The notes under the pieces: generated by a model
Seen by the model: the letters and a program-made list of their open reading frames with translations, nothing else
Databases searched by the model: none
What the model was told of the DNA's origin: nothing
Made by a program: the position numbers and the translations under genes
Assembly: GCA_015486075.1 (NCBI GenBank)
Contig: WFSG01000040.1
Coordinates: 4,647-68,646, forward strand
Length of the DNA stretch: 64,000 nt
Origin: Deltaproteobacteria bacterium
Lineage (GTDB): Bacteria > Desulfobacterota > Desulfomonilia > UBA1062
Reading direction: 5' to 3'
Part shown: piece after piece, positions 9,968 through 40,627 of the stretch
Layout of the letters: each line of letters opens with the position of its first letter
Numbering within the stretch: position 1 is the first letter of the stretch

Positions 9968-9980
9968 CTACAGATCTCCT

Positions 9981-16325: not shown

Positions 16326-16608
16326 CACACATGAGAGATGCATAGTAACAACCATGATATTGCCTCTATCCTGCCCAATCATCCCACCATCTACCAGTCA
16401 TATTTACCATTTATAAGTCAAAGTTTTGACTAAGAATACCCATATCTTGGTCTAATGTATTGATATCACTAGTCCTTCATTCAGGCACGCATATTGCTGT
16501 TTCCTGCAAGTAGGATAGTTGATTGGCATGTACTACATTAACCATTGCTGCTTTTAGCTTAGGGGTAAACATTTCACCCCAATGGGCGGAGCCTAATCTG
16601 TTATCAAT

Positions 16609-17580: not shown

Positions 17581-17590
17581 GGAGGAAAAA

Positions 17591-20081: not shown

Positions 20082-21304
20082 AATGCAGGTTCTGCGGCAA
20101 TTATCTTAAACATCAATTCATCGATATGGTTAGCGCTCCACCATCCAATTCATTCTTAACAAAAGAACAACTAGATAAGCCCGAAGTCTTTTACCCCTTA
20201 AGACTAATGGTCTGCGAGAAATGTTGGCTTGTACAGATCGATGAATACAAGAAGTCGGAAGAAATCTTTAATAAGGATTATACCTACTTTTCCTCATACT
20301 CAAAGACATGGCTCAGGCATGCAAAGAAATATGTGGACATGATCATCTCCAGGTTAAGTCTTAATGCCACCTCCCTGGTTATGGAGATCGCATCCAATGA
20401 TGGATACCTACTGCAATATTTTAAAGAAAAAGGGATCCCATGCATGGGCATTGAACCTAGCGTCAGTACCGCCCAAGAAGCAAGAAAGAAAGGGATTGAG
20501 ACATTGGAGGAATTCTTTGGCGTAGGACTCGCGGAGAAACTTTCCAATGAGGGCAGAAAGCCGGACCTGATCATAGGCAACAATGTACTTGCCCATGTCC
20601 CAAATATAAATGACTTCGTCAAGGGGCTAAAGATTATCCTGAAACCTGGTGGTGTTATAACCATGGAATTTCCTCACTTAATGCGCCTAGTTGAGGGAAA
20701 CCAGTTCGATACAATCTACCACGAGCACTTCTCGTATTTCTCATTACACACGGTAAACCGGATATTCTCAAGTCACGACCTTGTTATCTTCGATGTGGAG
20801 GAGCTCCCAACGCATGGCGGGTCCTTGAGGATCTATGCCAGGCATGTTGAAGACAACTCAAAACCTGTAGAGCAAAGAGTTGCTGCACTATTGGAAAAAG
20901 AGAAAACACGAGGGATGCTTGCGATAGATTATTATCTTGGTTTTCAGCATAAGGCGGACAAAGTGAAATATGCGTTTCTTTCATTTCTGGTGGAGCAGAA
21001 AAAACGTGGGAAGAAAGTGGTTGCTTACGGGGCTGCGGCTAAAGGCAACACCTTGCTAAATTACTGCGGGGTTAAAAAAGACTTGATAGAGTTTGTTGTG
21101 GATGCATCTCCTTATAAACAGGGCAAATATCTGCCTGGTAGCCACATACCAGTGGTTGCAGAAAAAGAGATCAAAAGGACAAAGCCGGATTATGTACTTA
21201 TCCTACCTTGGAATATCAAGGATGAGATCATGGAACAGCTAGGTTATATCCACGAATGGGACGGAAGGTTTGTGGTACCTATTCCAGAAATCGAGATATC
21301 TTGA
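20078..21304 (+). CDS. NDP-hexose C-methyltransferase (TylCIII-like; N-terminal Zn ribbon + class I SAM MTase + C-MT C-terminal domain)
   Basis: N-terminal CRFCGN...CEKC zinc ribbon; methyltransferase motif I VMEIASNDGYLL; C-terminal C-methyltransferase domain (VAYGAAAKGNTLLNYCG). The ATG at 20078 overlaps the preceding stop (ATGA). Confidence 0.8.
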   Translation: MKCRFCGNYLKHQFIDMVSAPPSNSFLTKEQLDKPEVFYPLRLMVCEKCWLVQIDEYKKSEEIFNKDYTYFSSYSKTWLRHAKKYVDMIISRLSLNATSLVMEIASNDGYLLQYFKEKGIPCMGIEPSVSTAQEARKKGIETLEEFFGVGLAEKLSNEGRKPDLIIGNNVLAHVPNINDFVKGLKIILKPGGVITMEFPHLMRLVEGNQFDTIYHEHFSYFSLHTVNRIFSSHDLVIFDVEELPTHGGSLRIYARHVEDNSKPVEQRVAALLEKEKTRGMLAIDYYLGFQHKADKVKYAFLSFLVEQKKRGKKVVAYGAAAKGNTLLNYCGVKKDLIEFVVDASPYKQGKYLPGSHIPVVAEKEIKRTKPDYVLILPWNIKDEIMEQLGYIHEWDGRFVVPIPEIEIS

Positions 21305-21321
21305 TTAAGGAAGGCGATGAT

Positions 21322-22215
21322 ATGAAGGTATTGGTTACTGGAGCAACTGGTTTTATTGGAGGTTATGTTGTTCGACAATTAATTAATCAAGGATATCGAG
21401 TTGTTGCAACTTCAAGAAATCCTGAAAAGGCAAAGGCCTTCGAATGGATTTCTCAGGTACAATACATTCCCTGTGATCTCAATGTGATGCGGAATGACTT
21501 CTTCCAATTTTTTCATCAACCTGATTTACTGATTCATTTGGCATGGGAAGGTTTGCCAAATTACGAAGACTTGTTTCATTTTGAGAAGAACCTGTTTTCC
21601 AATTACTCGTTTCTGAAAAACATAATCGAACATGGACTAAAACGCTTGGTGGTAACAGGTACATGCCTTGAATATGGAATGCAAAACGGAGCTTTAAGTG
21701 AGGACATGGAGGCTAGACCTGATAATCCTTATGGTTTGGCAAAGGATACCTTGCGAAGGTTCCTGGAACAACTGCAGAAAAAGATCAATTTTGATCTAAA
21801 ATGGATACGTCTATTTTATATGTATGGAAAAGGTCAGAGTCCCAATTCAATCCTATCTCAACTTGATAGATCGTTGGAAAATGGAGAAACCAACTTTAAC
21901 ATGTCGGGCGGAGAACAATTAAGAGATTATTTGCCGGTTGAAAGGGCTGCTACATACATAATTAGAATCGCGATGCAAGATAAGGTAAACGGAATTATCA
22001 ACTGTTGCAGCGGTAAACCTATCTCTATTAGAAAACTCGTGGAAAATTATTTAGAGAGGAAGCAAAAAAGTATCCATCTGAATTTAGGGTTTTATTCATA
22101 CACCGACTATGAACCAATGGCTTTTTGGGGAGATGCAACAAAGCTTAACATTGCTTTATCCAGTTTTGATCTTGATAAAGGTGATAGATCTTATGAACCA
22201 GATAGAACAATTTAA
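21322..22215 (+). CDS. NAD-dependent sugar epimerase/reductase (extended SDR; likely NDP-4-ketohexose reductase)
   Basis: MKVLVTGATGFIGGYV Rossmann motif; catalytic Y in YGLAKD; 298 aa. The start was trimmed to the ATG at 21322. Confidence 0.75.
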   Translation: MKVLVTGATGFIGGYVVRQLINQGYRVVATSRNPEKAKAFEWISQVQYIPCDLNVMRNDFFQFFHQPDLLIHLAWEGLPNYEDLFHFEKNLFSNYSFLKNIIEHGLKRLVVTGTCLEYGMQNGALSEDMEARPDNPYGLAKDTLRRFLEQLQKKINFDLKWIRLFYMYGKGQSPNSILSQLDRSLENGETNFNMSGGEQLRDYLPVERAATYIIRIAMQDKVNGIINCCSGKPISIRKLVENYLERKQKSIHLNLGFYSYTDYEPMAFWGDATKLNIALSSFDLDKGDRSYEPDRTI

Positions 22216-22927
22216 ACGTGAATGTATGAGGCGTATCAGGCAGTATGGAAAGAACAAGAAATTACTAGATGCGGCGAGACTTTTTGTACAAGAATCTACC
22301 ATACCCAAATACTCCTACAACTTCACCTGGCTTGGCCGTCCAATAATTCAGTATCCACAGGACATCATCGCAATGCAGGAGATTATATGGCAGGTAAAAC
22401 CCAACCTTATTATAGAAACAGGGATTGCACATGGTGGAGGACTTATCTTCTACGCGTCCATGCTTGAACTTCTGGGTGGAGATGGCCAGGTGCTTGGTAT
22501 CGACATTGATATCAGGGAACACAACAGGGTTGAGATAGAAAGACACCCCATGTTCAAACGAATTACAATGATAGAAGGTTCGTCTATTGATGAAGATGTT
22601 GTCCAGAAGGTCCGTGACTTTGCAAAGGATAAAAAGAGGGTTCTAGTTGCACTTGATTCCATGCATACACACGAACACGTGCTAAAAGAGCTTGAACTTT
22701 ATTCTCCCCTGGTAACAAAAGGTAGCTACCTTGTTGTCTTTGACACCATCATTGAAGACATGCCAGATGGCTTCTTTCCCGACCGACCATGGGGAAAGGG
22801 TAACAATCCCAAGACAGCGGTATGGGAATTCATGAAAAACAATGACCGTTTTGAGATCGACAAGGAGATTGAGAATAAATTGCTGATCACCGTTGCACCC
22901 GATGGATATCTAAGATGCATTAAGTAA
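22193..22927 (+). CDS. CmcI/cephalosporin-hydroxylase-family sugar O-methyltransferase
   Basis: CmcI-family motif IIETGIAHGGGLIFYA, of the rhamnosyl-O-methyltransferase-like family. The start at 22193 overlaps the preceding gene's 3' end. Confidence 0.7.
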   Translation: MNQIEQFKRECMRRIRQYGKNKKLLDAARLFVQESTIPKYSYNFTWLGRPIIQYPQDIIAMQEIIWQVKPNLIIETGIAHGGGLIFYASMLELLGGDGQVLGIDIDIREHNRVEIERHPMFKRITMIEGSSIDEDVVQKVRDFAKDKKRVLVALDSMHTHEHVLKELELYSPLVTKGSYLVVFDTIIEDMPDGFFPDRPWGKGNNPKTAVWEFMKNNDRFEIDKEIENKLLITVAPDGYLRCIK

Positions 22928-22958
22928 TGCCTATACTAAAATACAAAGGGGATAATCA

Positions 22959-25900
22959 ATGAGAACAAACAAGACACCATTTGTCAGCATAGGTATGCCT
23001 GTATACAATGGCGAGCGTTACATAAAGCAGGCACTGGATTCTTTACTATCCCAGGACTACGACAACTTTGAGTTAATAATCTCTGATAATGCTTCTACCG
23101 ATAGTTCGCCAGATATCTGTCTTGAGTATAAAAATAAGGATGGCCGTGTCAAGTTTTACCGCAATGATAAGAATATTGGACCTAATGATAACTTCAATCG
23201 TGTCTTTGAACTATCATCAGGCCAATATTTCATGTGGGCAGCGTGTGATGACCTATGGACACCTAATTACATATCATCACTTGTAAAAGCTTTAGCCTCT
23301 GATAAAAATGCAGTTCTAGCATTTTCACAACTGAACAATATTGACGAAAACGGTAATATATGCCGTGAATACCCGAACCTCCATCTTCTATCATCAAAGG
23401 CCCCCCTGCCTGACAGGCTAAATAATATAATATGGTTCAGGGAAGAGGATGGGAAGGCAAACCTAGTATACGGCCTCATCAGGAGTGATATCTTAAAGAA
23501 GATTGACATATTCAAATCTTACGGTTTTGGAAACTGGGGTGTTGATTATCTTTTAGTATTTAGACTGGCGTTGTTCGGCAAATTTTTATTTGTAAATGAT
23601 TCTTGTTTTTACAAGAGACTGACAGAAGAAAACATCTCGAGATGGGCAAACACTTCTCCTGAAGAGTACTGCCACCTTATTCAGGGTTACTTCCAGGGCT
23701 ACAGAACCATTATCAAAGAAAGCAATCTACGAGACATTGAGAAAGATACACTACTGATGTCCATCTCTGCAAGGGAAGGCCATTGGTACTCCCGCATCCT
23801 AGGTTCGAATACTATTGAAGATACAGCTTCCAAAATAAGATCCATGGTTGAGAAAACTCACGATTATACAGCTCCATCCATCATAAATAATAAACAACAT
23901 CAGCACACACCCAACATGGACAGGCAGGATACCAACACAAATAAGCCTTCCCAGATAATAGATAAGACAATACTATTTCTGAGTGTTGGTAGTATCAATT
24001 ACGATTGTAATATCAACTTTTATGAACCCCTAAAGGCCATCTTCAAGAAAGCAATAAACTACAACTACATGGAAAGGCTAGAAATCTTAGGTAAAAAAGC
24101 GATGAATGAAGAGATTATCCACATAGTAAAAAGCAAAAAGCCCGACTATGTATTCATTCACACCTATCAGGATCAAATAGAACTATCCACTTTGGACAAG
24201 ATAAACATGCTTGGTGTAAAAACAATTGCATGGTTTTCAGATGATCACTGGCGCTTTGATGATTATTCAAGATTCCTGGCACCGCATGTCTTTTGCTCAA
24301 TAACAACCGACAAATACGCGGTGGATAAATATAAGAGTCTGGGATTTAACGTCATAAAATCACAATGGGCCTCAAATCAACACCATTATAGAAAGACCAA
24401 TACTCCTCTATTGTATGACGTTACCTTTGTGGGACAAAACTATGGCAAAAGAAAAGATAACTTATTTTATCTAAAAACCAAGAATGTCCCACTTAGCGTA
24501 TTTGGAAGAGGTTTTGGGACATTCCTTGAGTTCGATGAGATCATCAAGATATTCAATGCCAGCAAGATCAATCTTAACTTTAGCGGCAGCTCCCGGGACG
24601 ATAACATCAAGCAAATAAAGGGAAGGATTTTTGAAGTCCCTATGTGTAAAGGCTTCCTGTTAACCGAGTACGCCGAAGGCATAGAGGAGTATTTCGAAAT
24701 AGGCAAGGAAATAGAGTGTTTTGATGATATAAAGGATGCCCTTGATAAGATCCAATACTACCTAAAACACGAAGACAGGCGTCTAGAGATAGCCGAGAAA
24801 GGCCATATACGTGCACTAAGGGATCACACATGGGAAAAGAGATTAAGGGATTTGTTCCTCGAAGTGGAAAGACTTGAGAAAAGCTCAAGCGTGCCTCACG
24901 GGCATGACTGGATAACTACCCAGAAAGACATGCAAAAAGAAATCAGCGATCACAAGAAACATAATATCCCTTACAGGAAAAAGTATGAGATGGGTTTTCA
25001 TGGCGACAGTTACCTGCTTACGCTCATAGACCATGTGCTTACAAGGTGTGATGCATTTATAGAAACAGGGACATACATGGGTGATTCCCTTGAATATGTA
25101 GCTCGAAACTTCAGCCATCTCCATATATTCTCATGCGAACCAAAGACAGAACACATAACAGTTGCCAGAAACAAACTCCGTCCTTACCTACATAATATTA
25201 CACTCGACCAGGTTAAGTCACCAGATTTCTTATATAAAATAGTGGAAGATCACCCCGATCTTGTCAACAAGGATGTGGCCTTCTGGCTTGATGCTCACTC
25301 ATTTGGATATAAATGGCCATTGAAAGATGAGATAAGGTTTATAACAGGGACATTCAAGAAGGCATACATCTTTATAGATGACTTCAAGATACCAGGCAGG
25401 CCTGAATTTCAGTATGACATCTACGATGGTCAAGAGTGTTCCTGGGAATTTATCCATGATGAGATGTGTACGGATAAGGAATATTTAATATATCTACCCA
25501 AATACAAAGAGAAAACATCCAGGCATCATCCCCTTGTAGGGTGGGCCCTTATAGAATTTGGCCACGCAACTATGCAAATACCAGACTCACTAAAAGATCA
25601 CCTCATCCAAACATCTGCCTATAGACTGCCAGCCGAGGGCAAGTTTGATGAAGAACATCATGATCATGATGTATACAATGAATCAGTGTCATACGGGGAG
25701 AACTCCAACAGTTATATGGCAGATCACTGGTCAGATAAATCCGTCCACCCTGGTAGCGAAAAGAATAAGAACGCTAAACACCCGATTCGTCCATCAGGGG
25801 GTAAAAAGTATGTGTCAAGAGAGCATATAAAGCATGTTCTTCTAACTACCTCGGCTGCACCTAACCAGTCTCCTTTCTCAACGACAGAGAAAAGACCTCC

Positions 25901-28900
25901 CATAGGTTTAGGCTTCCTCATATCGGTGTTAAGAAACGCCGGGCACAAAGTATTCTTCATAGACAATTACCTCAGGCCAGACAATTTCCTTGAAACAGAT
26001 TTTCTCCAGAGAAACAGGATTGATTACGTGGGGATATATGCAAACACCATCTGCTATAGGGATACGCTGAGGATGCTTTACAGGCTTGAATACCTCAGGC
26101 GCACCGGCAGATGGGGAGGTAAAATCATCGTGGGTGGCCCTCATACAACCGTTGCCTTGGATACAATACCTGATTTTGTAGATTACATAGTCCAGGGTGA
26201 AGGAGAGAAGGCCATCCTTGATATTGTGGAAGAAAGGATATCTGAACGTATTGTAAAGTACCCACGTATTAAAGACCTGGATAAACTTCCCATGCCTGCC
26301 TGGGATTACTTTGTCAGAATGCCGTATAACTGGGGGGTAGACTGGTTTCGGGAACAACCTGTGTTCACTATGAATACGAGTAGAGGTTGTCCATTCAGAT
26401 GCACTTTCTGCTCAGTTGGCTCTATCTGGGGAAAACAGTATACCTATTTCAGTGCTGAACGCATCGTCTCTGATATCGAATACCTAACCAGGGAATACGG
26501 TGCAAAGGGGATATATTTCAGGGAAGACAACTTTACCCTAAACAAAAAAAGACTCGTAGAGTTCTGCGAGTTGTTGCTCAAGAAAGGAATAAACATACCA
26601 TGGGCATGCGAGACAAGGGTCTCCAACCTCAACAAGGACATCGTTGAACTAATGTCTCGTGCAGGGGCATGTGGTTTTTATTTTGGCGTGGAGAGCGGTT
26701 CTCAAAGGATACTGGATTTCCTGAAAAAGGATATCAAGGTGGATCAAACAAGAAAGACCTTTGAGCTATGCCACAGGTTTGGTATCAATACAGCCGCAAG
26801 TGTGATAGTTGGAGTCCCAACTGAGACAGAGGATGACCTAAGGCAGACTTACTCACTGTTGAATGACATAAAACCAACAGTTACCTGGTTCAACGTTTTT
26901 GTAGGTATACCGAACAGCGAGCTGTACAAGTATACTATAAAGAATAGGCTTTATGAGTTCATCGATGATAGAGGCCTAGTCTACTTAAAAGGTCACAATG
27001 AACGGGTTAAAAGATTCTATGGTGGGCATATCAATGCAAGTATACCAGCAATACTGGACAATAACGAAAAAACGGCAAATCCAGAGATCACTGTTGTCAT
27101 GCCTGTGTACAACGCTGAGAGATACATAGATAAGGCCATAAAGAGTGTGCTGGCACAAACATATCAAGATTTCGAATTTATAATCATAGATGACGCATCA
27201 ACGGACAACACTAGTGAGATCCTAAAAAGATTTGACGATCCAAGGATTAGGACAATTAAGAACCCTAATAATCTTGGGTTAACAAAATCCCTCAACAAAG
27301 CCATACGTGAAGCAAAAGGTACGTACATAGCTAGAATGGATGCAGATGATATCTCTATACCGCACAGGCTTGAAACCCAGCTCAACTTCCTAAAAAAGAA
27401 CACGGATCATGCACTTGTTGGAAGTTCTTATTACCAGATAGATGATACTGGAAGGATAATCTCCCTGGTCAGGGTACTAAGCGATGATAACGAAATACGT
27501 GCTGGTTTAAAAAAACAGAACTGGTTTGGCCATGGTAGCATAATGATGCTGAAAAGCGCGTTCCTCCAATGCGGAGGTTATGATGAATCTTTTAAATACG
27601 CACAGGATTATGACCTCTGGCTAAGGATCTCAGAGAAGTACAAGGTGGCCAATATAGGAGAGCCTCTTTATCAGTGGAGATCTACTGCTGGAAATATCTC
27701 AAATGCGAGGATTCAAGAGCAGAAATATTTTGCCAGCCTCGCTGTCAAGAAAGCAGAGGAAAGGAAAAAGGCACGTATTATAGACAAAACAGATAAACCC
27801 TTGGTCTCTGTTATTGTCCCTACGTATAACCGTCCTGACATGCTTAGAGAGGCCTTAACGAGCATATTGAACCAGAGCTATCAGAACTATGAGATCATAG
27901 TGGTAAACGATGGAGGTATAAACATAGAAAGCATTATACACCAGCTAAACAGCAAAGGTAATATCACATATGTCAAACATAACATAAACAAGGGTCTTGC
28001 TGCATCAAGGAACAGTGGAATCAGCCTTGCAAAAGGCAAGTATATTGCTTACCTGGATGACGATGATGTGTTCTATCCCGATCACCTGGAGACCTTGGTA
28101 AACCTCCTGGAAGAAACCGACTACAAGGTAGCCTACACTGATGCCTACAGGGCTCACCAGGTATTGTATGACAATTCATATAAGATAACTGCAAGGGATA
28201 TCCCGTACTCGGTGGATTTCTCCAAGGACCTAATACTAATACGTAACCTCTCTCCTGTAAACTGCTTCATGCATGAAAAAAAATGCCTTGAAAAGGTTGG
28301 CCTTTTTGACGAGGCACTCACAACCCACGAGGACTGGGATCTCTGGATCAGGCTATCCAGGAGTTATGACTTCAAACATATAAAAAAGGTTACCACAGAG
28401 TTCAGGGACAGGAGAGACGGTTCAACAATGACAAGTTCCAAACTCCCAGACTTCCTTAGAACAACGCGTATCATATATAAAAGATACAGCAGCTATACAA
28501 TGGGTAGGCAAGATATTCAAAGGGCACAAGAACAAAATATCCATCTACTAGAAAACGAGATATCAAAATATAGTATTTCAGTCTCAATGAAATGCTCCAT
28601 CATCATCCCTGTTTTCAACCAGGTTGAATACACGAAGAAATGCCTCGAGGCACTCGTGGAAAACACGCCAGATGATCTCTACGAAGTGATTATCGTGGAT
28701 AACGGTTCAACCGACGGCACAAAAGAGTTTCTTAAATGCCTTGAAGGCGATGTAAAAATCATCACCAATCAAGAAAACCTAGGTTTTGCAAAGGCATGTA
28801 ACCAGGGCGCAAGAGAGGCAAGCGGCAAATACCTGGTCTTTCTGAATAATGATACCATACCCCAAAAAGGATGGCTGGAAGAGCTGGTCAGGGTAGCCGA

Positions 28901-31268
28901 TGCGGATGAAGACATTGCAGTGGTAGGCAGCAAGTTAATGTTCCCGGATGGTACCATCCAGCATGCAGGCGTTGGAATCGCTGATAGCAAGTTATTAGCT
29001 GGACACCTCTACAGGGGATATCCTTCTGACTTTCCTCCTGCAAACAAGCCAAGGGATTTCCAGGTAGTAACCGGTGCATGCATGCTCGTAAAAAAAGACA
29101 TATTCTTTAGCATAGGTGGCTTTGACGAAGCATACGTAAACGGGTGCGAGGACATCGACCTCTGCTTCAAGATTAGAGAGGAAGGCAAAAGGGTCTTCTA
29201 CAACCCCAGGAGTGTACTCACCCATTTCGAGGGAAAGACCGAGGGCAGACAGAATAAGATGGATGATAATGCAAAGATCCTGTTTGAGAGATGGGGAGGC
29301 AGGGTAAAACCTGACTACGAGAGATATCTTATGGATGATGGGTTCAGGATCGAGGAGACACCCGAAGGAGAGAAAAAATGGGTATACCACGAAGAACTAT
29401 CCAAGCCTGTGCTTAGTGTCGTGATAGTAACCTACAATTCCCTTGGCTATATTGGAAAGTGTCTTGACAGCATAAAGACTCAAACCCCTATTCCATACGA
29501 AGTCGTAGTAATAGACAACAACTCAAGTGACGGGACAAGGGACTTTCTTAAGGGCATGAAAGGTATAAAAATTATACTGAACGATGAGAACAGGGGCTTC
29601 TCAAAGGCCACGAACCAGGGAATTAAAGCAGCAAGAGGCGAACACATAGTGTTCTTGAACCCAGATACCGTCGTCACCTGGGACTGGGCATGGCACATGA
29701 TGCTCCACCTCAAAAAGGGTGTTGGGGCAGTGGGACCCGTGTCCAACTACGCGGCAGGCCTGCAGAGGTACGAGCTTTACATGAAGGAGAAAAACATGGG
29801 CAATATCGATGTAAACAAGCTCGCTGAAAAGCTGTACACCTGGAACATGGGTAAGGCCATGGATACAAGGCTACTCACGGGCTTTTGCATGATGACAAAG
29901 AAAGAGATAATAGACGAGGTGGGCATGCTCGATGAAGACCTGTTCCTAGGGAGCGACGACCTGGAATTCTCCTGGAGGCTAAAGGAGAAGGGATATAGGC
30001 TTGTTGTAGCCACTGATACCTTCATATACCACAAGGCACAGGCGAGCTTTGCCACCGAGCCCGAGGAAAAGATGAAGAGACTCACCCAGGAAAGCCAGGA
30101 CACGCTTTACCTGAAGCTAGAGAAGTACTACGGCAAGGGCAGGGTACCTTCCAGCAAGGAGCTATGGGGCATGGACTGGTTCAGGCCTTCCAGAAAATTA
30201 ACGCGTCCATCCCTTCCCCTCACGTCCATTATCATGCTCACGTTCAACCAGCTTGACTACACCAGGAAATGCCTGGAGAGCATAGAGAAACACACCAAGG
30301 CAAGGTACGAGCTCATAATCGTGGACAACGGGTCAACGGATGGCACGGTTGAGTTCTTAAAGGATTATGCAAAAACCCGCGCGAATGCAGAGCTCATTCT
30401 CAATAAAGAGAACCTGGGCTTTGCAAGAGGTAATAACCAGGGCATTGAGAAGTCAAAGGGCGACTACATAGTCCTTTTAAACAACGACGTTGTGGTGACT
30501 AAAGGCTGGCTGGATAAAATGGTCTCGTACATGGAGGAGAACCCTGATATCGGCATGGCAGGACCTGTATCAAACAATGTCTCTGGACCACAGAAGGTAG
30601 AGGATGCACCATCGGGCGAGGACATGGACAAGATACATGCCTTTGCAAGGCATATCTCAGAAGAGAATGCAGGTAAGGTCGAGGATGTCTTGAGGCTCGT
30701 TGGTTTTTGCCTGCTTATCAGAAAAGAAGTAATAGACCTCATAGGTCCCCTGGACGAGAACTACGGCAGCGGTAACTTTGAAGACGACGACCTGTGCCTT
30801 AGGTCTTCCATAGCAGGCTTCAGGCATGTAATCTTAAAAGACGTATTCGTACACCACTTTGGCAGCAAGACCTTTGAAGGGAACAACATAGATTACAACT
30901 CAAGCCTTGACAAAAACAGGGAATACTTTGCCAGGAAATGGGACGGCATAGTAGAGATGCAAGAAGGCAGCTACAAGGTAAGGCTCGAGCCCAAGGACAG
31001 GTTAAATGCACTCGTACGGATGGGAGAGATGGAACACGAAAAGGGTAGGATCAATACAGCTGTAAACATATTCAAGAAGGCACTCATGCTCGAACCCTTA
31101 AACAGCCGCGTTATGAATGATCTTGGTGCAATACAATGGGAACTGGGAGAAAGGGAGTCTGCTATCAGGACCTTCCAGAAGGCACTTAGTATAAACCCGG
31201 ACGACGAGGATGCGAGGTTCAACCTTGAGCAGGCACTTTCAACCGGCAAAAGGCCAGGGGCCATCTGA
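22959..31268 (+). CDS. 2769-aa multi-domain glycan-assembly mega-enzyme: GT2 - CgeB-like GT - MTase-like - B12-binding radical SAM - five further GT2 domains - TPR
   Basis: A single uninterrupted ORF with RBS AAAGGGGA. Approximate domain positions by nucleotide are as follows. GT2 #1, about 22990-23700 (MPVYNGERYI...ISDNASTDSS). CgeB-like glycosyltransferase domain, about 23965-24880 (...VTFVGQNYGKRKDNL...DHTWEKRL). Class I methyltransferase-like domain, about 24982-25510 (FIETGTYMGDSLEY). B12-binding radical SAM domain, about 25810-27000, with RGCPFRCTFCS at 26388-26412. GT2 #2, 27085-27760. GT2 #3, 27795-28560. GT2 #4, 28587-29390. GT2 #5, 29406-30200. GT2 #6, 30214-30960. TPR repeats, 30990-31268. 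Each GT2 domain carries D..DD/DxD-type motifs (e.g. IIVDNGSTDGT). Confidence 0.8.
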   Translation: MRTNKTPFVSIGMPVYNGERYIKQALDSLLSQDYDNFELIISDNASTDSSPDICLEYKNKDGRVKFYRNDKNIGPNDNFNRVFELSSGQYFMWAACDDLWTPNYISSLVKALASDKNAVLAFSQLNNIDENGNICREYPNLHLLSSKAPLPDRLNNIIWFREEDGKANLVYGLIRSDILKKIDIFKSYGFGNWGVDYLLVFRLALFGKFLFVNDSCFYKRLTEENISRWANTSPEEYCHLIQGYFQGYRTIIKESNLRDIEKDTLLMSISAREGHWYSRILGSNTIEDTASKIRSMVEKTHDYTAPSIINNKQHQHTPNMDRQDTNTNKPSQIIDKTILFLSVGSINYDCNINFYEPLKAIFKKAINYNYMERLEILGKKAMNEEIIHIVKSKKPDYVFIHTYQDQIELSTLDKINMLGVKTIAWFSDDHWRFDDYSRFLAPHVFCSITTDKYAVDKYKSLGFNVIKSQWASNQHHYRKTNTPLLYDVTFVGQNYGKRKDNLFYLKTKNVPLSVFGRGFGTFLEFDEIIKIFNASKINLNFSGSSRDDNIKQIKGRIFEVPMCKGFLLTEYAEGIEEYFEIGKEIECFDDIKDALDKIQYYLKHEDRRLEIAEKGHIRALRDHTWEKRLRDLFLEVERLEKSSSVPHGHDWITTQKDMQKEISDHKKHNIPYRKKYEMGFHGDSYLLTLIDHVLTRCDAFIETGTYMGDSLEYVARNFSHLHIFSCEPKTEHITVARNKLRPYLHNITLDQVKSPDFLYKIVEDHPDLVNKDVAFWLDAHSFGYKWPLKDEIRFITGTFKKAYIFIDDFKIPGRPEFQYDIYDGQECSWEFIHDEMCTDKEYLIYLPKYKEKTSRHHPLVGWALIEFGHATMQIPDSLKDHLIQTSAYRLPAEGKFDEEHHDHDVYNESVSYGENSNSYMADHWSDKSVHPGSEKNKNAKHPIRPSGGKKYVSREHIKHVLLTTSAAPNQSPFSTTEKRPPIGLGFLISVLRNAGHKVFFIDNYLRPDNFLETDFLQRNRIDYVGIYANTICYRDTLRMLYRLEYLRRTGRWGGKIIVGGPHTTVALDTIPDFVDYIVQGEGEKAILDIVEERISERIVKYPRIKDLDKLPMPAWDYFVRMPYNWGVDWFREQPVFTMNTSRGCPFRCTFCSVGSIWGKQYTYFSAERIVSDIEYLTREYGAKGIYFREDNFTLNKKRLVEFCELLLKKGINIPWACETRVSNLNKDIVELMSRAGACGFYFGVESGSQRILDFLKKDIKVDQTRKTFELCHRFGINTAASVIVGVPTETEDDLRQTYSLLNDIKPTVTWFNVFVGIPNSELYKYTIKNRLYEFIDDRGLVYLKGHNERVKRFYGGHINASIPAILDNNEKTANPEITVVMPVYNAERYIDKAIKSVLAQTYQDFEFIIIDDASTDNTSEILKRFDDPRIRTIKNPNNLGLTKSLNKAIREAKGTYIARMDADDISIPHRLETQLNFLKKNTDHALVGSSYYQIDDTGRIISLVRVLSDDNEIRAGLKKQNWFGHGSIMMLKSAFLQCGGYDESFKYAQDYDLWLRISEKYKVANIGEPLYQWRSTAGNISNARIQEQKYFASLAVKKAEERKKARIIDKTDKPLVSVIVPTYNRPDMLREALTSILNQSYQNYEIIVVNDGGINIESIIHQLNSKGNITYVKHNINKGLAASRNSGISLAKGKYIAYLDDDDVFYPDHLETLVNLLEETDYKVAYTDAYRAHQVLYDNSYKITARDIPYSVDFSKDLILIRNLSPVNCFMHEKKCLEKVGLFDEALTTHEDWDLWIRLSRSYDFKHIKKVTTEFRDRRDGSTMTSSKLPDFLRTTRIIYKRYSSYTMGRQDIQRAQEQNIHLLENEISKYSISVSMKCSIIIPVFNQVEYTKKCLEALVENTPDDLYEVIIVDNGSTDGTKEFLKCLEGDVKIITNQENLGFAKACNQGAREASGKYLVFLNNDTIPQKGWLEELVRVADADEDIAVVGSKLMFPDGTIQHAGVGIADSKLLAGHLYRGYPSDFPPANKPRDFQVVTGACMLVKKDIFFSIGGFDEAYVNGCEDIDLCFKIREEGKRVFYNPRSVLTHFEGKTEGRQNKMDDNAKILFERWGGRVKPDYERYLMDDGFRIEETPEGEKKWVYHEELSKPVLSVVIVTYNSLGYIGKCLDSIKTQTPIPYEVVVIDNNSSDGTRDFLKGMKGIKIILNDENRGFSKATNQGIKAARGEHIVFLNPDTVVTWDWAWHMMLHLKKGVGAVGPVSNYAAGLQRYELYMKEKNMGNIDVNKLAEKLYTWNMGKAMDTRLLTGFCMMTKKEIIDEVGMLDEDLFLGSDDLEFSWRLKEKGYRLVVATDTFIYHKAQASFATEPEEKMKRLTQESQDTLYLKLEKYYGKGRVPSSKELWGMDWFRPSRKLTRPSLPLTSIIMLTFNQLDYTRKCLESIEKHTKARYELIIVDNGSTDGTVEFLKDYAKTRANAELILNKENLGFARGNNQGIEKSKGDYIVLLNNDVVVTKGWLDKMVSYMEENPDIGMAGPVSNNVSGPQKVEDAPSGEDMDKIHAFARHISEENAGKVEDVLRLVGFCLLIRKEVIDLIGPLDENYGSGNFEDDDLCLRSSIAGFRHVILKDVFVHHFGSKTFEGNNIDYNSSLDKNREYFARKWDGIVEMQEGSYKVRLEPKDRLNALVRMGEMEHEKGRINTAVNIFKKALMLEPLNSRVMNDLGAIQWELGERESAIRTFQKALSINPDDEDARFNLEQALSTGKRPGAI

Positions 31269-31282
31269 CCCTGCCCCATTGC

Positions 31283-32590
31283 ATGGAGCCAGGATATACT
31301 TTCCCTGATCAAATGAAGTTTCTTACAGCAAAGGACAATATTGTGCTTACCTTTTTTGGCCAGGACTATGCACTTGGGCCCATATCCTACCCGGACGTGG
31401 ATATATCGAGGATACTCGTTGTGACAGATGACCTTGCAAAGGCCTTGTACAGGATATACCCCGAGTTCCTAGAGCCCGTGAGTTTCGATGCAACGAGGAT
31501 CCCATCTTTTCCCGAGCCACTGGTGGGTTCTCCATCAGGCATACCCGAAGGCAAGAGACTCATGATCATAAGGGATGCAGGCATAGGGGACATGATCATG
31601 CTGATACCTGCACTTAGAAAACTTAAGCAAATGGTAGGGCATAAGGTCGAGATAGGACTATCCACCTTGAAAGACAGGCACCCGCTGGTTGAAGGCCTTG
31701 GATACGTGGACAGGTTATATCCCCTCCCCTTGAGGCTCTCCGAGCTGGTCAGTGAGACAGATTACTTCGTGGGTTTCCCTGACATAAAGGGCATATACAA
31801 TAGGGTAAACATGACTGACTTCTACTTGGATTCAATGTGCATGGATCCAGGTTCCATACCTTCTGCAGACAAGTTACCCAAGATACCGGAAAGCCTACTG
31901 TTGCATGAGGATACAATCAGGAAGATAAGAAAACTCGCTGGCTATAGGTCTCTTAAGGTCTTTTATTCGCCGGGAGCAAGCGATCCCATAAGGCGACTGC
32001 CACCCTGTATACTATTGACACTTGCCACGTCTTTTACCGACATGATCTTCCTCACGCCCGAGAAGATCCCTGAAGAGGCAAAGGGGCTTGATAATGTTAC
32101 TGGTATAGATACGTCATCAGGCCTTGCATCCTTTGCAACAGCAATAAGTGAATGTGACATCCTGGTCTCATCGGATAGCGGTGCATACCACATAGCCGCT
32201 GCAATAGGTAAACCTTCCCTTGTATTCTTCGGGCCCATACCATCCATGCTCAGGTCAACCTATTATCCATATGTGATCAGCCTGGACCCCTTTGATTACA
32301 TGGGCGAGACATGCGTGCCACCCTGCGGTATACATGCCAGGACGCAGATGGCATCCTTAAAGCCCATTGGTGCGAACATGGTAAGGGATTTGAGGCAGGG
32401 CACCGAGATAATCACCTTCTCGGGCCAGATGTTCACTTACGATCCCTCACTGGGTTGTCCTGAGGCACAGGCCAAGGGCACTAGGTTTAGCCCTTGCCTG
32501 GAATCATTTTCTGATGAATCCATTTTACAAGGTTTTGAGAGGGTCTTAGAACTAAGCAATCAAATAGCACCCATAACGCACGCTAGCTGA
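31283..32590 (+). CDS. GT9-family glycosyltransferase (heptosyltransferase-like), paralog 1
   Basis: ADP-heptose:LPS heptosyltransferase-like fold (RLMIIRDAGIGDMIMLIPAL..., ...SSDSGAYHIAAAIGKPSLVFFGP). About 45% identical to the downstream paralog. The alternative start is at 31313. Confidence 0.65.
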   Translation: MEPGYTFPDQMKFLTAKDNIVLTFFGQDYALGPISYPDVDISRILVVTDDLAKALYRIYPEFLEPVSFDATRIPSFPEPLVGSPSGIPEGKRLMIIRDAGIGDMIMLIPALRKLKQMVGHKVEIGLSTLKDRHPLVEGLGYVDRLYPLPLRLSELVSETDYFVGFPDIKGIYNRVNMTDFYLDSMCMDPGSIPSADKLPKIPESLLLHEDTIRKIRKLAGYRSLKVFYSPGASDPIRRLPPCILLTLATSFTDMIFLTPEKIPEEAKGLDNVTGIDTSSGLASFATAISECDILVSSDSGAYHIAAAIGKPSLVFFGPIPSMLRSTYYPYVISLDPFDYMGETCVPPCGIHARTQMASLKPIGANMVRDLRQGTEIITFSGQMFTYDPSLGCPEAQAKGTRFSPCLESFSDESILQGFERVLELSNQIAPITHAS

Positions 32591-32615
32591 TACCTTCTGT
32601 AATTATGGATAAAAG

Positions 32616-33905
32616 ATGACATTAGCATACCTTGCATCAACAGCTGAGGGCCGTTTTTTCTACCACGGCCATTCATACAAGCTCTCCCCCATTACCTATC
32701 CAGACGTAAATATCCATAACATACTTGTTATGGGAGGCCCTAGCCTGGCAAGGTCAATATGCAAGGAAAACAGTGGGCTCATGACCGGTCTGAATTTCGA
32801 TGCCTCCTTGATTCCAGGTTTCCCCGAGCCACTTGGCATGGCCGTGTCCGAGATACCATGCGGGAAAAGGCTCATGCTTCTGAGGGCAGGAGGCATAGGG
32901 GACCTGATAATGCTCACCCCTGCATTGAGGCAGCTCAGATCAAGGTGCAGATCAGGGGTAAAGATAGCGCTTTCAACTCTCCAGGACAGAAAGGCATTGT
33001 TCGAGGACCTGGGCTTTGTAGATGATTTTTATCCACATCCCATAAGGCTATCAGACCTCGTGGACTCGGCTGATTTCTACGTTGACTTCTCAGACAAAAG
33101 GGGCATCTTCAACCACGTTGACATGATAGACTTCCACCTTGACTGCCTGGGTATAGACCCATCAAGTGTGCCCAAAGAACAGAAAATACCCGAGATATCC
33201 AAGGGACTTTCAAGAAACCATGCAATAAGGGAAGAGATGAAAAGGCTATCAAGGCATGGCCGCCCGCTTGTGATCTATTCACCTGGCGCAAGCGACAGGA
33301 TAAGGTACCTACCAGACGACATACTCGGGCTTCTTGCAACAAGTTTCAAGGGCATCGACTACGTTGTACCCGGTAGCATGCCTAAGACCTGTGAGGGCAT
33401 GGAGAACGTATTCAGTATTGATACGTCTTCTGGCCTGGATGCCTTTGTGACCGCAATCGCAGCATCACACGCTGTCATCACCACGGACAGCTCTGCTTAC
33501 CACATAGCATCGGCACTAAGCAAGCCATGCCTTGTTTTCTTTGGCCCTATCTCGTCGAGTATACGGAGCAAATACTATCCAACGATCGTGGCACTTGATG
33601 CTTGCTATTTCGGCAAGACATGTGCAAGTCCGTGCGGGATAAGTGCACTTACAGAGACACCACCTGTGATACCCATTGGAGCAAACAGGGTAAGGGCACT
33701 TGAAAAAGGGGTAAAGATAACTACTTACTCGGGCGAGTCATTCACCTTTGATCCTGGTAAAGGATGTCCCGAGGCACAGTACCTGGGCAGTAGCACAAGC
33801 CCTTGCCTCATGTCATTTAGCCCGGAAGACATAATAAAGGGATTCGAGAGAGTGATGGATATGGTGGAAAGCCCGGAGAGGGAAAGAAAGAGAGAATCGC
33901 TGTGA
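32616..33905 (+). CDS. GT9-family glycosyltransferase (heptosyltransferase-like), paralog 2
   Basis: Same architecture as 31283-32590 (RLMLLRAGGIGDLIMLTPAL, TTDSSAYHIASALSKPCLVFFGP). Tandem duplicate. Confidence 0.65.
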   Translation: MTLAYLASTAEGRFFYHGHSYKLSPITYPDVNIHNILVMGGPSLARSICKENSGLMTGLNFDASLIPGFPEPLGMAVSEIPCGKRLMLLRAGGIGDLIMLTPALRQLRSRCRSGVKIALSTLQDRKALFEDLGFVDDFYPHPIRLSDLVDSADFYVDFSDKRGIFNHVDMIDFHLDCLGIDPSSVPKEQKIPEISKGLSRNHAIREEMKRLSRHGRPLVIYSPGASDRIRYLPDDILGLLATSFKGIDYVVPGSMPKTCEGMENVFSIDTSSGLDAFVTAIAASHAVITTDSSAYHIASALSKPCLVFFGPISSSIRSKYYPTIVALDACYFGKTCASPCGISALTETPPVIPIGANRVRALEKGVKITTYSGESFTFDPGKGCPEAQYLGSSTSPCLMSFSPEDIIKGFERVMDMVESPERERKRESL

Positions 33906-36433
33906 GTACCATATCGTTCTGCATGATCGTAAAGAATGCCCAGGATGATCTGGGTGAAATCCTTCCTATAATGGCAAAGGTCTCGGACGAGGTCATAGTT
34001 GTAGACACCGGGTCAACAGATAACACCCCTGATGTTGCCAGGACACTCGGTGCAAGCGTTATTGAAATAACATGGAAGGATTCCTTTGCTGAGGCCAGGA
34101 ACACTTACATAGATGCTGCAAGGGGAGACTGGATCATATCCATAGACGCGGACGAGAGGATTGCAGAGAAAGACCTTCACCACATAGCAGAAGCAAAGCA
34201 AAAGCCCCCCCATGGTTTCCTTATGACTACGAGGAATTATGGCAATGATCATGGGGTTGAAGGCTTCAGGCCCTGCACTGGCGAATATCCTGAGTTTGAA
34301 AATGGCTTCAAGGGATGGAGCCCATCCACAAAGGTAAGGATGTTTCCCAGGGTAAAAGGGCTCTACTACACCGGGGAGGTGAGGGAGCTCATAGAGCCCG
34401 GGCTTAAAAGGCTTGGCATACCCTTGGGTGAGGTGCTCACGCCAATACACCATTTTGGAACGCAATCCAGATCAAAGCGCCTATACTACAGGCAACTACT
34501 AGAGAAAAAGGTGCGATCCACGCCCAAGGACCCCAGGGCCATGATAGAGCTCGCAGTTGAGGATTTTCACCTGGGGAGACTGGACAAGGCCATAAGCGAG
34601 GCGGAAAGAGCCATATCCCTCCATGAGGAGGGATATAGAGGCCTTTACTTTGACCTGGCAAGTGCCTATAACCTCCTGGGCGCTGCATACATGAAGGTAG
34701 GGAAGAAGGATAAAGCACTTGAGGCATTCGACGCAGGCATAAAGTCAGGCGGTAGAAACAAGGACGTGCTTAAAAAAAATAAAGGTATATTGCTCTCACA
34801 AGGTATGCGCCCCTCTCTGGGCGTGGTGATGATAGTAAAGGACGAGGAGAAAGACCTGCCGAATATACTGGGCGATATAAAAGATGTGGTAGACGAGATA
34901 GTGGTCGTTGACACGGGTTCCAAAGACCACACGGTAGACGTGGCAAAAGATTTCGGGGCAAAGGTGGGTTACTTCGAGTGGTGTGACGACTTTTCAAAGG
35001 CAAGGAATGCATCCATAGACATGGCTGACTCAGACTATTTACTTTGGCTGGATGCAGACGACAGGATACCTCCAGAGGAGGCGGCCAAGCTACTGAGATT
35101 AAAGAAGAGCCTAAAACCAGGCAAAGATGCTGCATGGATGCTAAAGATAGTCAACACGGACAGGCAAGGTGGAGATACAGTAAGCTACCAGCTGAGGATA
35201 TTCCCGAGAAGGGATGACATGAGGTTTGTAAACAGGGTGCACGAGCAGATATTAGAAGTGGTCCAGAAGGCCGGGATTAAGATAGAATCAGCGGATATCA
35301 CCATAAGGCACACAGGCTACGATGATGAGGCGTCAAGGCTCTTAAAGGCAAGGAGAAACCTAAGGATATTACTCGACGAGGTAGGCCAGGGTAATGTCTC
35401 AAGCTCCAGGTATTTCTTCATAGCTTCATCGTACTTTGCCCTGCACGAATACGAGAGATCCCTTGAATACATCGGGAAGGCAAGGAAGAATTCATTTGGA
35501 AGCGAAAACTGGCTAAAGTACAGTTACTCTCTTGCCGCTGACTGTTACCTGAGGCTGGGCAACAAAGAAAGGGCAGTCCAGGAGTTTGGAGAGGCCACCA
35601 GTATCTACGAAAAGAGCGGGCTCATGCATTATTTCCTAGCAATGACATGCCTTAATGCAGGAATGTTCGAGGATGCTGTAAAGGCCTTTGAAAAAACTGC
35701 ATCCCTTGGCATAGAGATAGAGACATACCCTGTTCCACCAGACATACAGGAGAGTGCACCCTATTACTATGGTGTTGCCTTGGAAAGGCTTGGCAGGACC
35801 AATGAGGCCATGAAGGCATTCAGGACAGCCATAAAGATAAATCCATCACACTTTTTGGCCACCAGGGATCTTGGACTCAGCCTTCTCAAGGCAGGAGATA
35901 TGGACCAATCCCTTTCCTTCCTCGAGAAGGCAAAGAGGCTTGCCCAGGGATACGACCGCGTGCTCTGGCTTAGCATGGCAAAGATATACGATAGGCTTGG
36001 GATGACATCAAGGGCACTTGAAATCTACAGGGAGTCCGTGGGAATAGACCCCTATGACACGGATGCCCTTACTGGCCTGGTGGAGGCAAGCATGAAGGTG
36101 GACGACGTGGAGAGCCTTGTCCTCGGCATGGAGGGTCTCATGAATAACCTTGGAATGGATACGAACATGGTACTAGAGACCGTGGAGGACATAGCAGGTA
36201 CATGCTCTGACATAGCCAGGCGTCTCTTTGAGTCCCAAGATACCTTTAATGCCGAGAAACTCGTCAACTGCGCTTTGAAGCTGGACAAGAAATGTGCCAA
36301 GGCATACCTACTCGCGGCCGATATAAAGATCGCATCAGGGCAAAGAGAAGCAGGTGCCGACTGGCTCGAGAAGGCATTAAGGGCGGGAACACCTACCGAC
36401 GAGATAAAAAAAAGGATGCAGGGACTTTCCTAG
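33902..36433 (+). CDS. tandem GT2 glycosyltransferase with TPR repeat regions (GT2-TPR-GT2-TPR)
   Basis: Two GT2 cores (FCMIVKNAQDDL...VDTGSTDNT at about 33902-34560; GVVMIVKDEEKDL...VDTGSKDHT at about 34810-35330). Each is followed by TPR-like helical repeats, with a long TPR region at 35330-36433. Its start overlaps the preceding stop. Confidence 0.75.
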   Translation: MSTISFCMIVKNAQDDLGEILPIMAKVSDEVIVVDTGSTDNTPDVARTLGASVIEITWKDSFAEARNTYIDAARGDWIISIDADERIAEKDLHHIAEAKQKPPHGFLMTTRNYGNDHGVEGFRPCTGEYPEFENGFKGWSPSTKVRMFPRVKGLYYTGEVRELIEPGLKRLGIPLGEVLTPIHHFGTQSRSKRLYYRQLLEKKVRSTPKDPRAMIELAVEDFHLGRLDKAISEAERAISLHEEGYRGLYFDLASAYNLLGAAYMKVGKKDKALEAFDAGIKSGGRNKDVLKKNKGILLSQGMRPSLGVVMIVKDEEKDLPNILGDIKDVVDEIVVVDTGSKDHTVDVAKDFGAKVGYFEWCDDFSKARNASIDMADSDYLLWLDADDRIPPEEAAKLLRLKKSLKPGKDAAWMLKIVNTDRQGGDTVSYQLRIFPRRDDMRFVNRVHEQILEVVQKAGIKIESADITIRHTGYDDEASRLLKARRNLRILLDEVGQGNVSSSRYFFIASSYFALHEYERSLEYIGKARKNSFGSENWLKYSYSLAADCYLRLGNKERAVQEFGEATSIYEKSGLMHYFLAMTCLNAGMFEDAVKAFEKTASLGIEIETYPVPPDIQESAPYYYGVALERLGRTNEAMKAFRTAIKINPSHFLATRDLGLSLLKAGDMDQSLSFLEKAKRLAQGYDRVLWLSMAKIYDRLGMTSRALEIYRESVGIDPYDTDALTGLVEASMKVDDVESLVLGMEGLMNNLGMDTNMVLETVEDIAGTCSDIARRLFESQDTFNAEKLVNCALKLDKKCAKAYLLAADIKIASGQREAGADWLEKALRAGTPTDEIKKRMQGLS

Positions 36434-40600: not shown

Positions 40601-40627
40601 CTAAAGAAAAAAAATCCATCTCCGATA
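40601..40627 (+). promoter_or_regulatory. sigma28 (FliA)-like promoter upstream of fliS
   Basis: TAAA at 40601-40604, then 15 nt, then TCCGATAA at 40620-40627, against the consensus TAAA-N15-GCCGATAA. It lies 35 nt upstream of the fliS ATG. Confidence 0.5.

Follow-up and report, generated by a model that had tools for sequence, protein, structure and literature searches.

The 64,000-nucleotide window analysed here, taken from contig WFSG01000040.1 of a Deltaproteobacteria bacterium assembly (GCA_015486075.1), contains a single open reading frame (ORF) for a modular glycan-assembly protein of 2769 amino acids (aa). We interpret it, with a probability of about 0.58, as a soluble cytoplasmic enzyme that would build and tailor an O-linked methylated oligosaccharide on flagellin before FliS binding and export. 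The ORF (22959..31268, + strand) starts with ATG, runs for 2769 codons with no internal stop and no ambiguous bases, and is preceded by a GGGGA Shine-Dalgarno sequence about 7 nt upstream of the start codon. Flagellin is a plausible protein substrate because relatives of this giant protein sit in flagellar filament loci. The window also encodes sugar-nucleotide enzymes next to the ORF and a fliS gene 1.8 kb past the end of the cluster.

The giant reading frame is not an assembly artefact, because it has a collinear ortholog, only four gap columns in the alignment with it, and a low ratio of non-synonymous to synonymous substitution rates (dN/dS) in every module. The identical protein is present in public collections (NCBI, ENA; P0001), and a separate metagenome (JGI 3300033148) encodes the ortholog, P0002, of 2765 aa, which aligns at 87% identity with 100% query coverage. 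All four gap columns of the codon alignment are in-frame. The dN/dS is 0.115 overall and 0.08-0.14 across all catalytic modules, with values of 0.20 in the C-terminal tetratricopeptide repeats (TPR) and 0.41 in a low-complexity linker. Every catalytic module is under purifying selection, and none looks decayed. An earlier note on this DNA, made from the sequence alone, had described a single uninterrupted 2769-aa ORF at 22959-31268 and proposed a search for orthologs with the same domain order; the ORF is confirmed, and P0002 is such an ortholog. An error of assembly or sequencing that joined separate genes would suit the source of the sequence, a metagenome assembly, and a mosaic of base composition and of synonymous divergence (dS) along the gene. 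Against it stand the ortholog from an independent metagenome and the dozens of other giant fusions that carry the same cassette (see below), so that this explanation is largely refuted and we consider it very improbable. The mosaic itself was seen by comparing positions 20001-28000 with 28001-38000: the first half of the giant ORF has, like the sugar-pathway genes, a GC content of 0.40-0.42, against 0.46-0.51 further on and in the flanks. Similarly, dS against the ortholog (L001) is 0.25-0.30 in the three N-terminal modules and 0.9-1.5 in the second, third and sixth glycosyltransferase family 2 (GT2) modules, and this pattern suggests recombination or module exchange inside the giant gene.

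Profile searches with Pfam and NCBIfam, run on the whole protein and on ten pieces of it, together with fold prediction, indicate the module order GT2, CgeB-like GT-B glycosyltransferase, class-I methyltransferase fold, B12-binding-like domain with radical S-adenosylmethionine (SAM) core, five GT2 domains and short TPR. GT2 enzymes are a family of GT-A fold (PF00535). The first of them (GT2-1, aa ~7-290, 22977..23828, +) matches PF00535 with 106 bits and shows the motifs ISDNASTD, ACDD and GVDY. The other five follow the radical SAM core without interruption on the same strand: GT2-2 (aa 1373-1610, 27075..27788, 136 bits; IIDDASTD, DADD, QDYD), GT2-3 (aa 1611-1880, 27789..28598, 126 bits; VVNDGG, DDDD, EDWD), GT2-4 (aa 1881-2148, 28599..29402, 119 bits; VDNGSTD, NND, EDID), GT2-5 (aa 2149-2430, 29403..30248, 101 bits; IDNNSSD, NPD, DDLE) and GT2-6 (aa 2431-2675, 30249..30983, 103 bits; VDNGSTD, NND, EDDD). 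These six separate matches (101-136 bits) lie far above the cut-off of 23.3, and there is no seventh PF00535 match in the 2769-aa protein. The earlier note had counted seven GT2 domains, although its own list of motifs has six entries; a hidden seventh copy was considered and rejected, as no unassigned stretch is long enough to hold one.

When the six GT2 domains are aligned, two aspartates prove invariant: that of the DxD/NxD motif (D97 in GT2-1 numbering) and that of the (E/D)D base motif (D196); modules 4-6 carry the NxD variant. The first D(D/N) motif is canonical in five of the six domains and reads N-D in GT2-3. The claim that the GT2 signature aspartates are kept is therefore borne out for both catalytic residues, whose roles are assigned by homology, and with the purifying selection described above the six copies would be active rather than decayed, as had been proposed. 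Whole-protein self-BLAST gave nothing useful for defining repeats; module-wise BLAST was used instead, and identifies GT2-4, GT2-5 and GT2-6 as paralogs with 36-38% mutual identity. The best NCBIfam matches of the GT2 modules are the polysaccharide glycosyltransferases EpsE, TuaG, WcaA and EpsD, far below cut-offs.

The CgeB-like GT-B module (aa ~335-640, 23961..24878, +) reaches about 99-103 bits with PF13524 against a cut-off of 25, in agreement with the earlier prediction, and has no NCBIfam match. It is followed by a segment (aa ~672-898, 24972..25652, +; motifs FIETGTYMGD, FSCEP and FWLDAH) for which no Pfam, NCBIfam or PDB sequence or profile match was obtained, even at E values up to 0.1-10. 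Because the PDB profile search was empty even at E up to 10, we relied on fold prediction, and aa 672-898 are predicted to adopt a class-I methyltransferase (Rossmann-like) fold. The methyltransferase-like domain suggested previously stands as a predicted fold, although without any sequence-family match. Among the sequences collected, this module is present only in P0001, P0002, P0003, P0006 and P0008, all of them giant proteins, and always between the CgeB-like and radical SAM modules. The low-complexity linker behind it (aa 899-955, 25653..25823, +) is 69% identical to the ortholog and holds three of the four gap columns. At the other end of the protein, TPR_11, TPR_8, TPR_2, TPR_1 and TPR_19 all score above their cut-offs over about 2-3 repeats (aa 2676-2769, 30984..31265, +), which upholds the predicted C-terminal TPR. 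The maximum 19-residue hydropathy of the protein is 1.61, at aa 194; we rejected this peak as a membrane anchor, since it lies inside the GT-A core beside a catalytic Asp. The protein is predicted to be soluble, without a convincing transmembrane segment.

The radical SAM module (aa 956-1372, 25824..27074, +) combines a B12-binding-like Rossmann domain (PF02310, 43-45 bits, cut-off 32.1) with a radical SAM core (PF04055, 88-91 bits, cut-off 29.5). Its CxxxCxxC motif, CPFRCTFC, comprises C1144, C1148 and C1151 (aa 1144-1151, nt 26388-26411, +), and C189, C193 and C196 are invariant across 48 homologues. No NCBIfam equivalog was reached by the module (best 156 bits, cut-off 750). Its structure model has a mean local confidence (pLDDT) of 93, and AprD4 is the closest match in both structure and sequence, followed among structures by MgmA (27.5), TsrM (27.4), CysS (26.3) and RimO/MiaB (25/24); the alignment of the model with TsrM, CysS and OxsB spans about 375 residues. 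AprD4 is a sugar-modifying, cobalamin-independent radical SAM diol dehydratase, and MgmA, TsrM and CysS are cobalamin-dependent. Since the nearest structure, AprD4, uses no cobalamin and the next ones are cobalamin-dependent, the 'class B/B12' label is to be read as a statement on fold only. Accordingly, of the embedded B12-binding, class B radical SAM domain announced by the earlier note, both Pfam domains and the cysteine motif stand, but not the class B assignment. AprD4 (6fd2), MgmA (9ccb), TsrM (6wte), CysS (9n1b) and TokK (7kdx) are only 17-24% identical to the module, and they are stand-alone enzymes of antibiotic or cofactor/protein modification pathways; in contrast to the module studied here, none is fused to a glycosyltransferase. 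In one relative, P0008, an intein with an HNH endonuclease (aa ~743-1022; PF14890 53.8 bits, PF13392) sits exactly inside the cluster motif (SRGCPFR, intein CLTGN...VHN, CSYCSV), where the +1 splice nucleophile is the second Cys of CxxxCxxC.

Module-wise BLAST revealed a conserved cassette, [CgeB-like]-(methyltransferase-like)-radical SAM-GT2-2-GT2-3, optionally followed by a GT2-4- or GT2-6-type domain, that is found again, at 55-79% identity, within proteins of 1.5-3.7 thousand residues whose domains are otherwise shuffled. The radical SAM module is its best conserved part, and the CgeB-like module has 60-68% identical counterparts in P0003-P0012. When the alignment of the radical SAM-GT2-GT2 unit was searched against one genome per GTDB species, about 59 loci were recovered at 50-70% identity, in Thermodesulfobacteriota, Nitrospirota, Planctomycetota (including the anammox genus Kuenenia), Fibrobacterota, Omnitrophota, Anaerolineae and others. 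Complete ORFs bearing the radical SAM domain numbered 48, of which 30 had at least 1000 aa and 10 at least 2000 aa, the largest reaching 4064 aa. In a representative library of 1.8 billion proteins, the 28 closest radical SAM domains (65-79% identity) all belong to proteins of 812-3088 aa; next, at 58-70% identity, come many stand-alone radical SAM proteins of about 450 aa and radical SAM-GT2 didomain proteins.

The architecture thus appears to be one member of a sizeable, unannotated family, in which dozens of shuffled fusions are built on one conserved cassette, and the giant ORF would unite, by gene fusion, enzymes for which other bacteria have separate genes in glycan operons. A literature search on radical SAM or cobalamin enzymes with flagellin or glycosyltransferases found no paper on such fusions. 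The impression of an unfamiliar architecture was justified in that respect, but the architecture is not unique, given some 59 species-level loci in metagenome-assembled genomes (MAGs) and ORFs of up to 4064 aa. A description of the Kuenenia S-layer glycan (PMC5088730), considered as a link between methylated O-glycans and the cassette in anammox bacteria, was dropped, since it discusses no genes.

The genomic context of the relatives was assessed by profile searches of six-frame ORFs, counting filament-stage genes within 10 kb. Such genes were present at 24 of the 59 cassette loci, and at 19 of the 38 loci of at least 15 kb. Among fused forms, 22 of 40 loci were flagellar and one contained Wzm/Wzt, the fused form L019 adjoining these exporter genes, whereas stand-alone radical SAM genes had no flagellar neighbours and were associated with Wzm/Wzt in five of 12 loci. 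The neighbours of the fused forms in the 22 flagellar loci are flagellin, FlaF/FlbT, FliD, FliS or FliT. For instance, a GT2-TPR protein and, beyond it, FlaF, FlbT and flagellin are encoded after P0003; P0004 is flanked by FliT on one side and by FliD-FlhA-FlhB-FliRQPO-MotAB on the other; and the didomain protein P0054 (radical SAM-GT2) has a rod gene as one neighbour and FlaF/FlbT as the other, in a locus with TPR-glycosyltransferases. Giant fusions with TPR are associated with a flagellar setting, and the protein of the window belongs to this class. A distant radical SAM homologue (30% identity) in a gammaproteobacterial MAG (L066:1459-3383), too, has a pair of tandem flagellin genes within 10 kb.

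Stand-alone orthologs of the radical SAM module (58-70% identity) occur in Wzm/Wzt and Wzx-type clusters (L050, L052, L054, L056, L057, L087 and L088). Two of these loci were inspected: one is a Wza/Wzc/Wzx cluster and the other a Wzm/Wzt(Wzt_C) cluster (L087 and L088), and in both the gene after the radical SAM gene, or after an intervening methyltransferase, is of GT2-2 type (51% and 44% identical to GT2-2). GT2-2 follows the radical SAM module both in fusions and in these stand-alone operons, and the two would form a functional pair. Because the same clade and its GT2-2-type partner occur in Wza/Wzc/Wzx and Wzm/Wzt clusters, and because the nearest structure is the sugar-modifying AprD4, the radical SAM module probably acts on a sugar rather than on the flagellin protein. 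A reaction on flagellin itself, by analogy with protein methylation in ribosomally synthesized and post-translationally modified peptides (RiPPs) or in methyl-coenzyme M reductase (MCR), was considered, ApyD and MgmA being among the matches, and was judged less likely because the polysaccharide clusters that hold this clade and its GT2 partner lack flagellin. The Wzt of L088 carries a Wzt_C glycan-cap-binding domain, which hints at a role of the radical SAM enzyme in terminal modification.

The giant ORF is embedded in a tightly packed cluster of 12 genes, all on the + strand, from 16609 to 38857. Upstream of it lie genes for a GT1-type glycosyltransferase (16609-17580), a glucose-1-phosphate cytidylyltransferase (~17564-18373; TIGR02623, 341 vs 300), a CDP-glucose 4,6-dehydratase (18443-19540; TIGR02622, 490 vs 278), an RmlC-type epimerase (19530-20081; TIGR01221, 177 vs 156), a sugar C-methyltransferase (~20078-21304; PF08421, PF08484), a short-chain dehydrogenase (SDR) reductase/epimerase (21256-22215) and a protein resembling CmcI and rhamnosyl O-methyltransferases (~22166-22927; PF04989, 326 bits). 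The cytidylyltransferase and the dehydratase both exceed their NCBIfam equivalog cut-offs. These enzymes would supply a CDP-activated 6-deoxy-3-C-methylhexose, and the hexose is probably O-methylated. Downstream, two GT9-like proteins (31283-32590 and 32616-33905) are followed by an 843-aa protein of the architecture GT2-TPR-GT2-TPR (33902-36433) and an 807-aa protein with DUF3880 and two CgeB-like domains (36434-38857; PF13524 and DUF3880 well above cut-offs). The cluster holds 14 glycosyltransferase domains, seven of them outside the giant ORF, and transmembrane segments were found in none of its 12 proteins. The 64-kb window, judged by its ORFs of at least 150 aa, encodes no priming transferase, flippase, polymerase, ABC exporter or oligosaccharyltransferase, and Wzm, Wzt, Wzx, Wza and Wzc had no matches in the window.

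Ahead of the first cluster gene, within a gap of 284 nt, a sigma-54-type -24/-12 element, GGCACG-N4-TTGCT (16484..16498, +), is the sole exact match in the window, where 0.03 are expected, and the 12 genes are best explained as one putative sigma-54-type operon of soluble proteins. The fliS gene (40662-41033, +; PF02561, 122.8 bits) is preceded by a sigma-28-type promoter, TAAA-N15-TCCGATAA (40602-40628, +), a pattern with one exact match in the window and 0.00 expected. A generic scan for sigma-70 promoters and terminators returned fewer sites than shuffled sequence and was uninformative. Across the fetched loci (L001-L073), the pattern [TA]GGCA[CT]-N5-TTGC[AT] was seen 23 times against about 5.6 expected from base composition; 20 of the 23 elements lie on the cassette strand, several just upstream of giant ORFs. 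This enrichment would fit RpoN-dependent flagellar regulation. Two small + strand ORFs follow fliS, one of 123 aa (41003-41374) that overlaps its end, has no Pfam or NCBIfam match and could be a FliT- or FlgN-like partner, and one of 147 aa (41443-41886) with an internal hydrophobic stretch.

The cluster of the ortholog adjoins a chemotaxis operon. It differs from that of the window in having a DegT-type aminotransferase and an N-formyltransferase (L001:4371-6365) in place of the SDR reductase (window 21256-22215). Because of this replacement, the two strains probably make different sugars, a 4-formamido-3-C-methyl-4,6-dideoxyhexose in the ortholog strain and a 3-C-methyl-6-deoxyhexose in the window strain, and the same megaenzyme would use both.

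From these data we infer the acceptor, the order of action and the chemistry as follows. The upstream enzymes would supply CDP-6-deoxy-3-C-methylhexose, while the TPR elements of the giant protein and of the neighbouring GT2-TPR protein would hold newly made flagellin, by analogy with FlmG and GmaR. The first sugar would be placed onto Ser/Thr by an initiating enzyme, for which the neighbouring GT2-TPR protein and the TPR-proximal GT2-6 are candidates, and the remaining glycosyltransferase modules would extend the chain, sugar after sugar. The methyltransferase-fold module may O-methylate a chain residue, and the radical SAM module, with the GT2-2 that always follows it, may radically modify a sugar of the growing chain, by C-methylation if it is cobalamin-dependent and otherwise by an AprD4-like radical dehydration or another rearrangement. 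The modified flagellin would then be passed to FliS and exported, and the fusion may make up for the lack of an acceptor anchored in the membrane. The suggestion that a whole oligosaccharide could be assembled on one polypeptide is consistent with a real ORF, constrained modules and kept aspartates, but stays a proposal as to function and chemistry; likewise, a role of the TPR in recognizing a protein substrate would agree with the filament loci of the relatives and with the precedent of FlmG, although the target is a deduction.

More tentatively, and with a chance that we put well short of even, the radical SAM-GT2 pair may represent an undescribed radical sugar tailoring step in glycan assembly, kept as separate genes for O-antigen or exopolysaccharide (EPS) synthesis and welded into TPR megaenzymes for flagellin, where fusion would replace the membrane as a scaffold for a soluble acceptor and about ten enzymes. 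The reaction could be a C-methylation or a deoxygenation at an unactivated carbon of an in-chain residue.

The closest parallels by architecture are TPR-bearing glycosyltransferases acting on flagellin. In Caulobacter crescentus, the flagellin O-glycosyltransferase FlmG binds flagellins through its TPR domain (PMC7591256). Like the giant protein, FlmG is soluble, cytoplasmic and modular, with TPR and glycosyltransferase domains, and it is encoded with the filament-stage genes FlaF/FlbT, which are also neighbours of relatives of the giant protein. However, FlmG has 596 aa, a single GT-B domain and an N-terminal TPR, transfers pseudaminic acid, and has no methyltransferase or radical SAM module (PMC7591256). 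The Listeria monocytogenes flagellin O-GlcNAc transferase GmaR has its glycosyltransferase before the TPR, for which flagellin binding has been proposed (PMC9638930). It acts on cytoplasmic flagellin, and its GT-TPR order resembles the terminal GT2-6-TPR unit, in which the TPR directly follows GT2-6 and no transmembrane segment is present, as well as the 843-aa GT2-TPR-GT2-TPR neighbour. Unlike the giant protein, GmaR has 637 aa, a single glycosyltransferase and an added antirepressor domain, and transfers a monosaccharide only.

A second parallel is offered by WbdA/WbdD, WbbB and WsaE (Geobacillus S-layer glycan), in which fused glycosyltransferase modules, sometimes with a methyltransferase, build a whole glycan in the cytoplasm; these have 2-3 catalytic modules and undecaprenyl-linked acceptors. 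To our knowledge, they contain no TPR or radical SAM module. Stand-alone relatives of the radical SAM/GT2 pair do sit in Wzm/Wzt clusters, the setting of ABC-transporter-dependent glycan synthases, but no exporter was found in the window. Finally, PF13524 is common to the CgeB/YkvP-type spore-surface maturation proteins, to the second module of the giant protein and to the 807-aa neighbour, which also has DUF3880; in contrast to CgeB/YkvP, the setting here is Gram-negative, non-sporulating and flagellar.

Several observations weigh against a flagellin acceptor. The only flagellar gene in the window is fliS, with a glycerate-kinase-like gene of the opposite strand lying between it and the cluster, and there is no flagellin gene within the 64 kb; the sigma-54-type and sigma-28-type patterns behind the expected counts given above were defined only once the sites were known. 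For a glycan that has to pass the flagellar export channel, 14 glycosyltransferase domains are a large number, and GT9-like enzymes such as the two neighbours are classically associated with the lipopolysaccharide (LPS) core. The relatives carrying the cassette are all MAGs, with no cultured organism or biochemistry among them; 17 of the 40 fused loci have no flagellar or export genes in the flanks available; and the contrast between fused and stand-alone forms (Fisher p = 5e-4) ignores phylogeny and horizontal co-transfer. Moreover, the radical SAM/GT2 pair would also serve lipid-linked polysaccharide pathways, so that the modules are apparently not specific to the flagellum. This last point leads to the main rival, that the giant protein acts at the inner membrane face to make a lipid-linked surface polysaccharide, be it O-antigen, capsule or EPS, with the priming transferase and exporter genes located elsewhere. 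The stand-alone orthologs with their GT2-2-type partners in Wza/Wzc/Wzx and Wzm/Wzt clusters, the fused form next to Wzm/Wzt, the GT9-like neighbours, the number of glycosyltransferase domains, which suits a polymer, and the best, if sub-threshold, NCBIfam matches of the GT2 modules all speak for it. The window, however, has no priming transferase, flippase, polymerase or ABC exporter among its ORFs of at least 150 aa, although these could lie elsewhere in the genome; all 12 cluster proteins are soluble; fused forms go with flagellar genes (22 of 40) and not with exporters (one of 40); and the TPR modules and the adjacency of fliS point to a protein acceptor. We consider this rival unlikely, with roughly one chance in five.

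A different cytoplasmic protein, such as an S-layer protein, pilin or adhesin, is an improbable target, half as probable as a lipid-linked polymer; the flagellar linkage would then be a by-product of the co-transfer of genomic islands. GT9-fold enzymes include protein heptosyltransferases, and no flagellar gene is seen at 17 of the 40 fused loci, both of which would suit this explanation, as does the activity of TPR-glycosyltransferases such as the cyanobacterial Ogt (PMC9306852) on pilins and other proteins. On the other hand, the cluster contains no candidate acceptor gene, and the linkage is specific to filament-stage genes (flagellin, FliD, FliS, FliT, FlaF and FlbT) in several phyla. Still less probable is a non-exported or small-molecule glycoconjugate, whether an intracellular methylated polysaccharide, a glycolipid or a natural product. 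It would account for the solubility of all the enzymes, the lack of an exporter, the heavy methylation capacity (C-methyltransferase, CmcI-like enzyme, methyltransferase-fold module and radical SAM) and the origin of the nearest radical SAM structures from antibiotic pathways (AprD4, TsrM, CysS and TokK), but the cluster has no genes for building an aglycone (polyketide synthase, non-ribosomal peptide synthetase or lipid), and the flagellar context of the relatives and the TPR modules would be left unexplained. Two further systems were rejected: a Maf-type flagellin nonulosonic-acid system, as there is no Maf/MptE-like Pfam match in the ORF or its neighbours and the sugar pathway is of CDP-6-deoxyhexose type, and an oligosaccharyltransferase-dependent system, as no such domains are present.

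Elsewhere in the window, the stretch 6417-13300 (- strand), apparently unrelated to the giant ORF, encodes a YcaO protein (6417-7724), a PNPOx-like protein, a radical SAM activase with ferredoxin motifs (8921-9967), a glycyl radical enzyme resembling pyruvate formate-lyase (9981-12503) and, at its end, a GntR/FadR regulator (12539-13300); together these genes probably form an anaerobic operon for glycyl-radical catabolism. Another, unrelated radical SAM gene and one for an FkbM-type methyltransferase lie far from the cluster (56723-57751 and 60715-61548, both on the - strand). The window comes from the MAG of an uncultured member of the Thermodesulfobacteriota, whose seryl-tRNA synthetase shares 88% identity with proteins of other MAGs and about 68-70% with Desulfomonilia proteins.

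Flagellin glycosylation is known mainly from pathogens, where nonulosonic acids or short glycans are attached by a single small enzyme or a handful of them. The embedded radical SAM-GT2 unit, whose radical SAM module has no characterised relative, is the notable feature of the present protein, whose design otherwise combines TPR-glycosyltransferase flagellin glycosylation with multi-domain glycan synthases. Our results point to a second style of flagellin-glycosylation system, widespread in anaerobic environmental phyla, in which a single protein of 1-4 thousand residues joins as many as ten or more catalytic modules. The radical SAM/GT2 pair also marks an unstudied step in O-antigen-type clusters. 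If the proposed function is true, radical chemistry would join the means of protein-glycan tailoring, these proteins would provide a natural case of enzyme fusion replacing membrane scaffolding, and they may offer compact single-gene toolkits for glyco-engineering.

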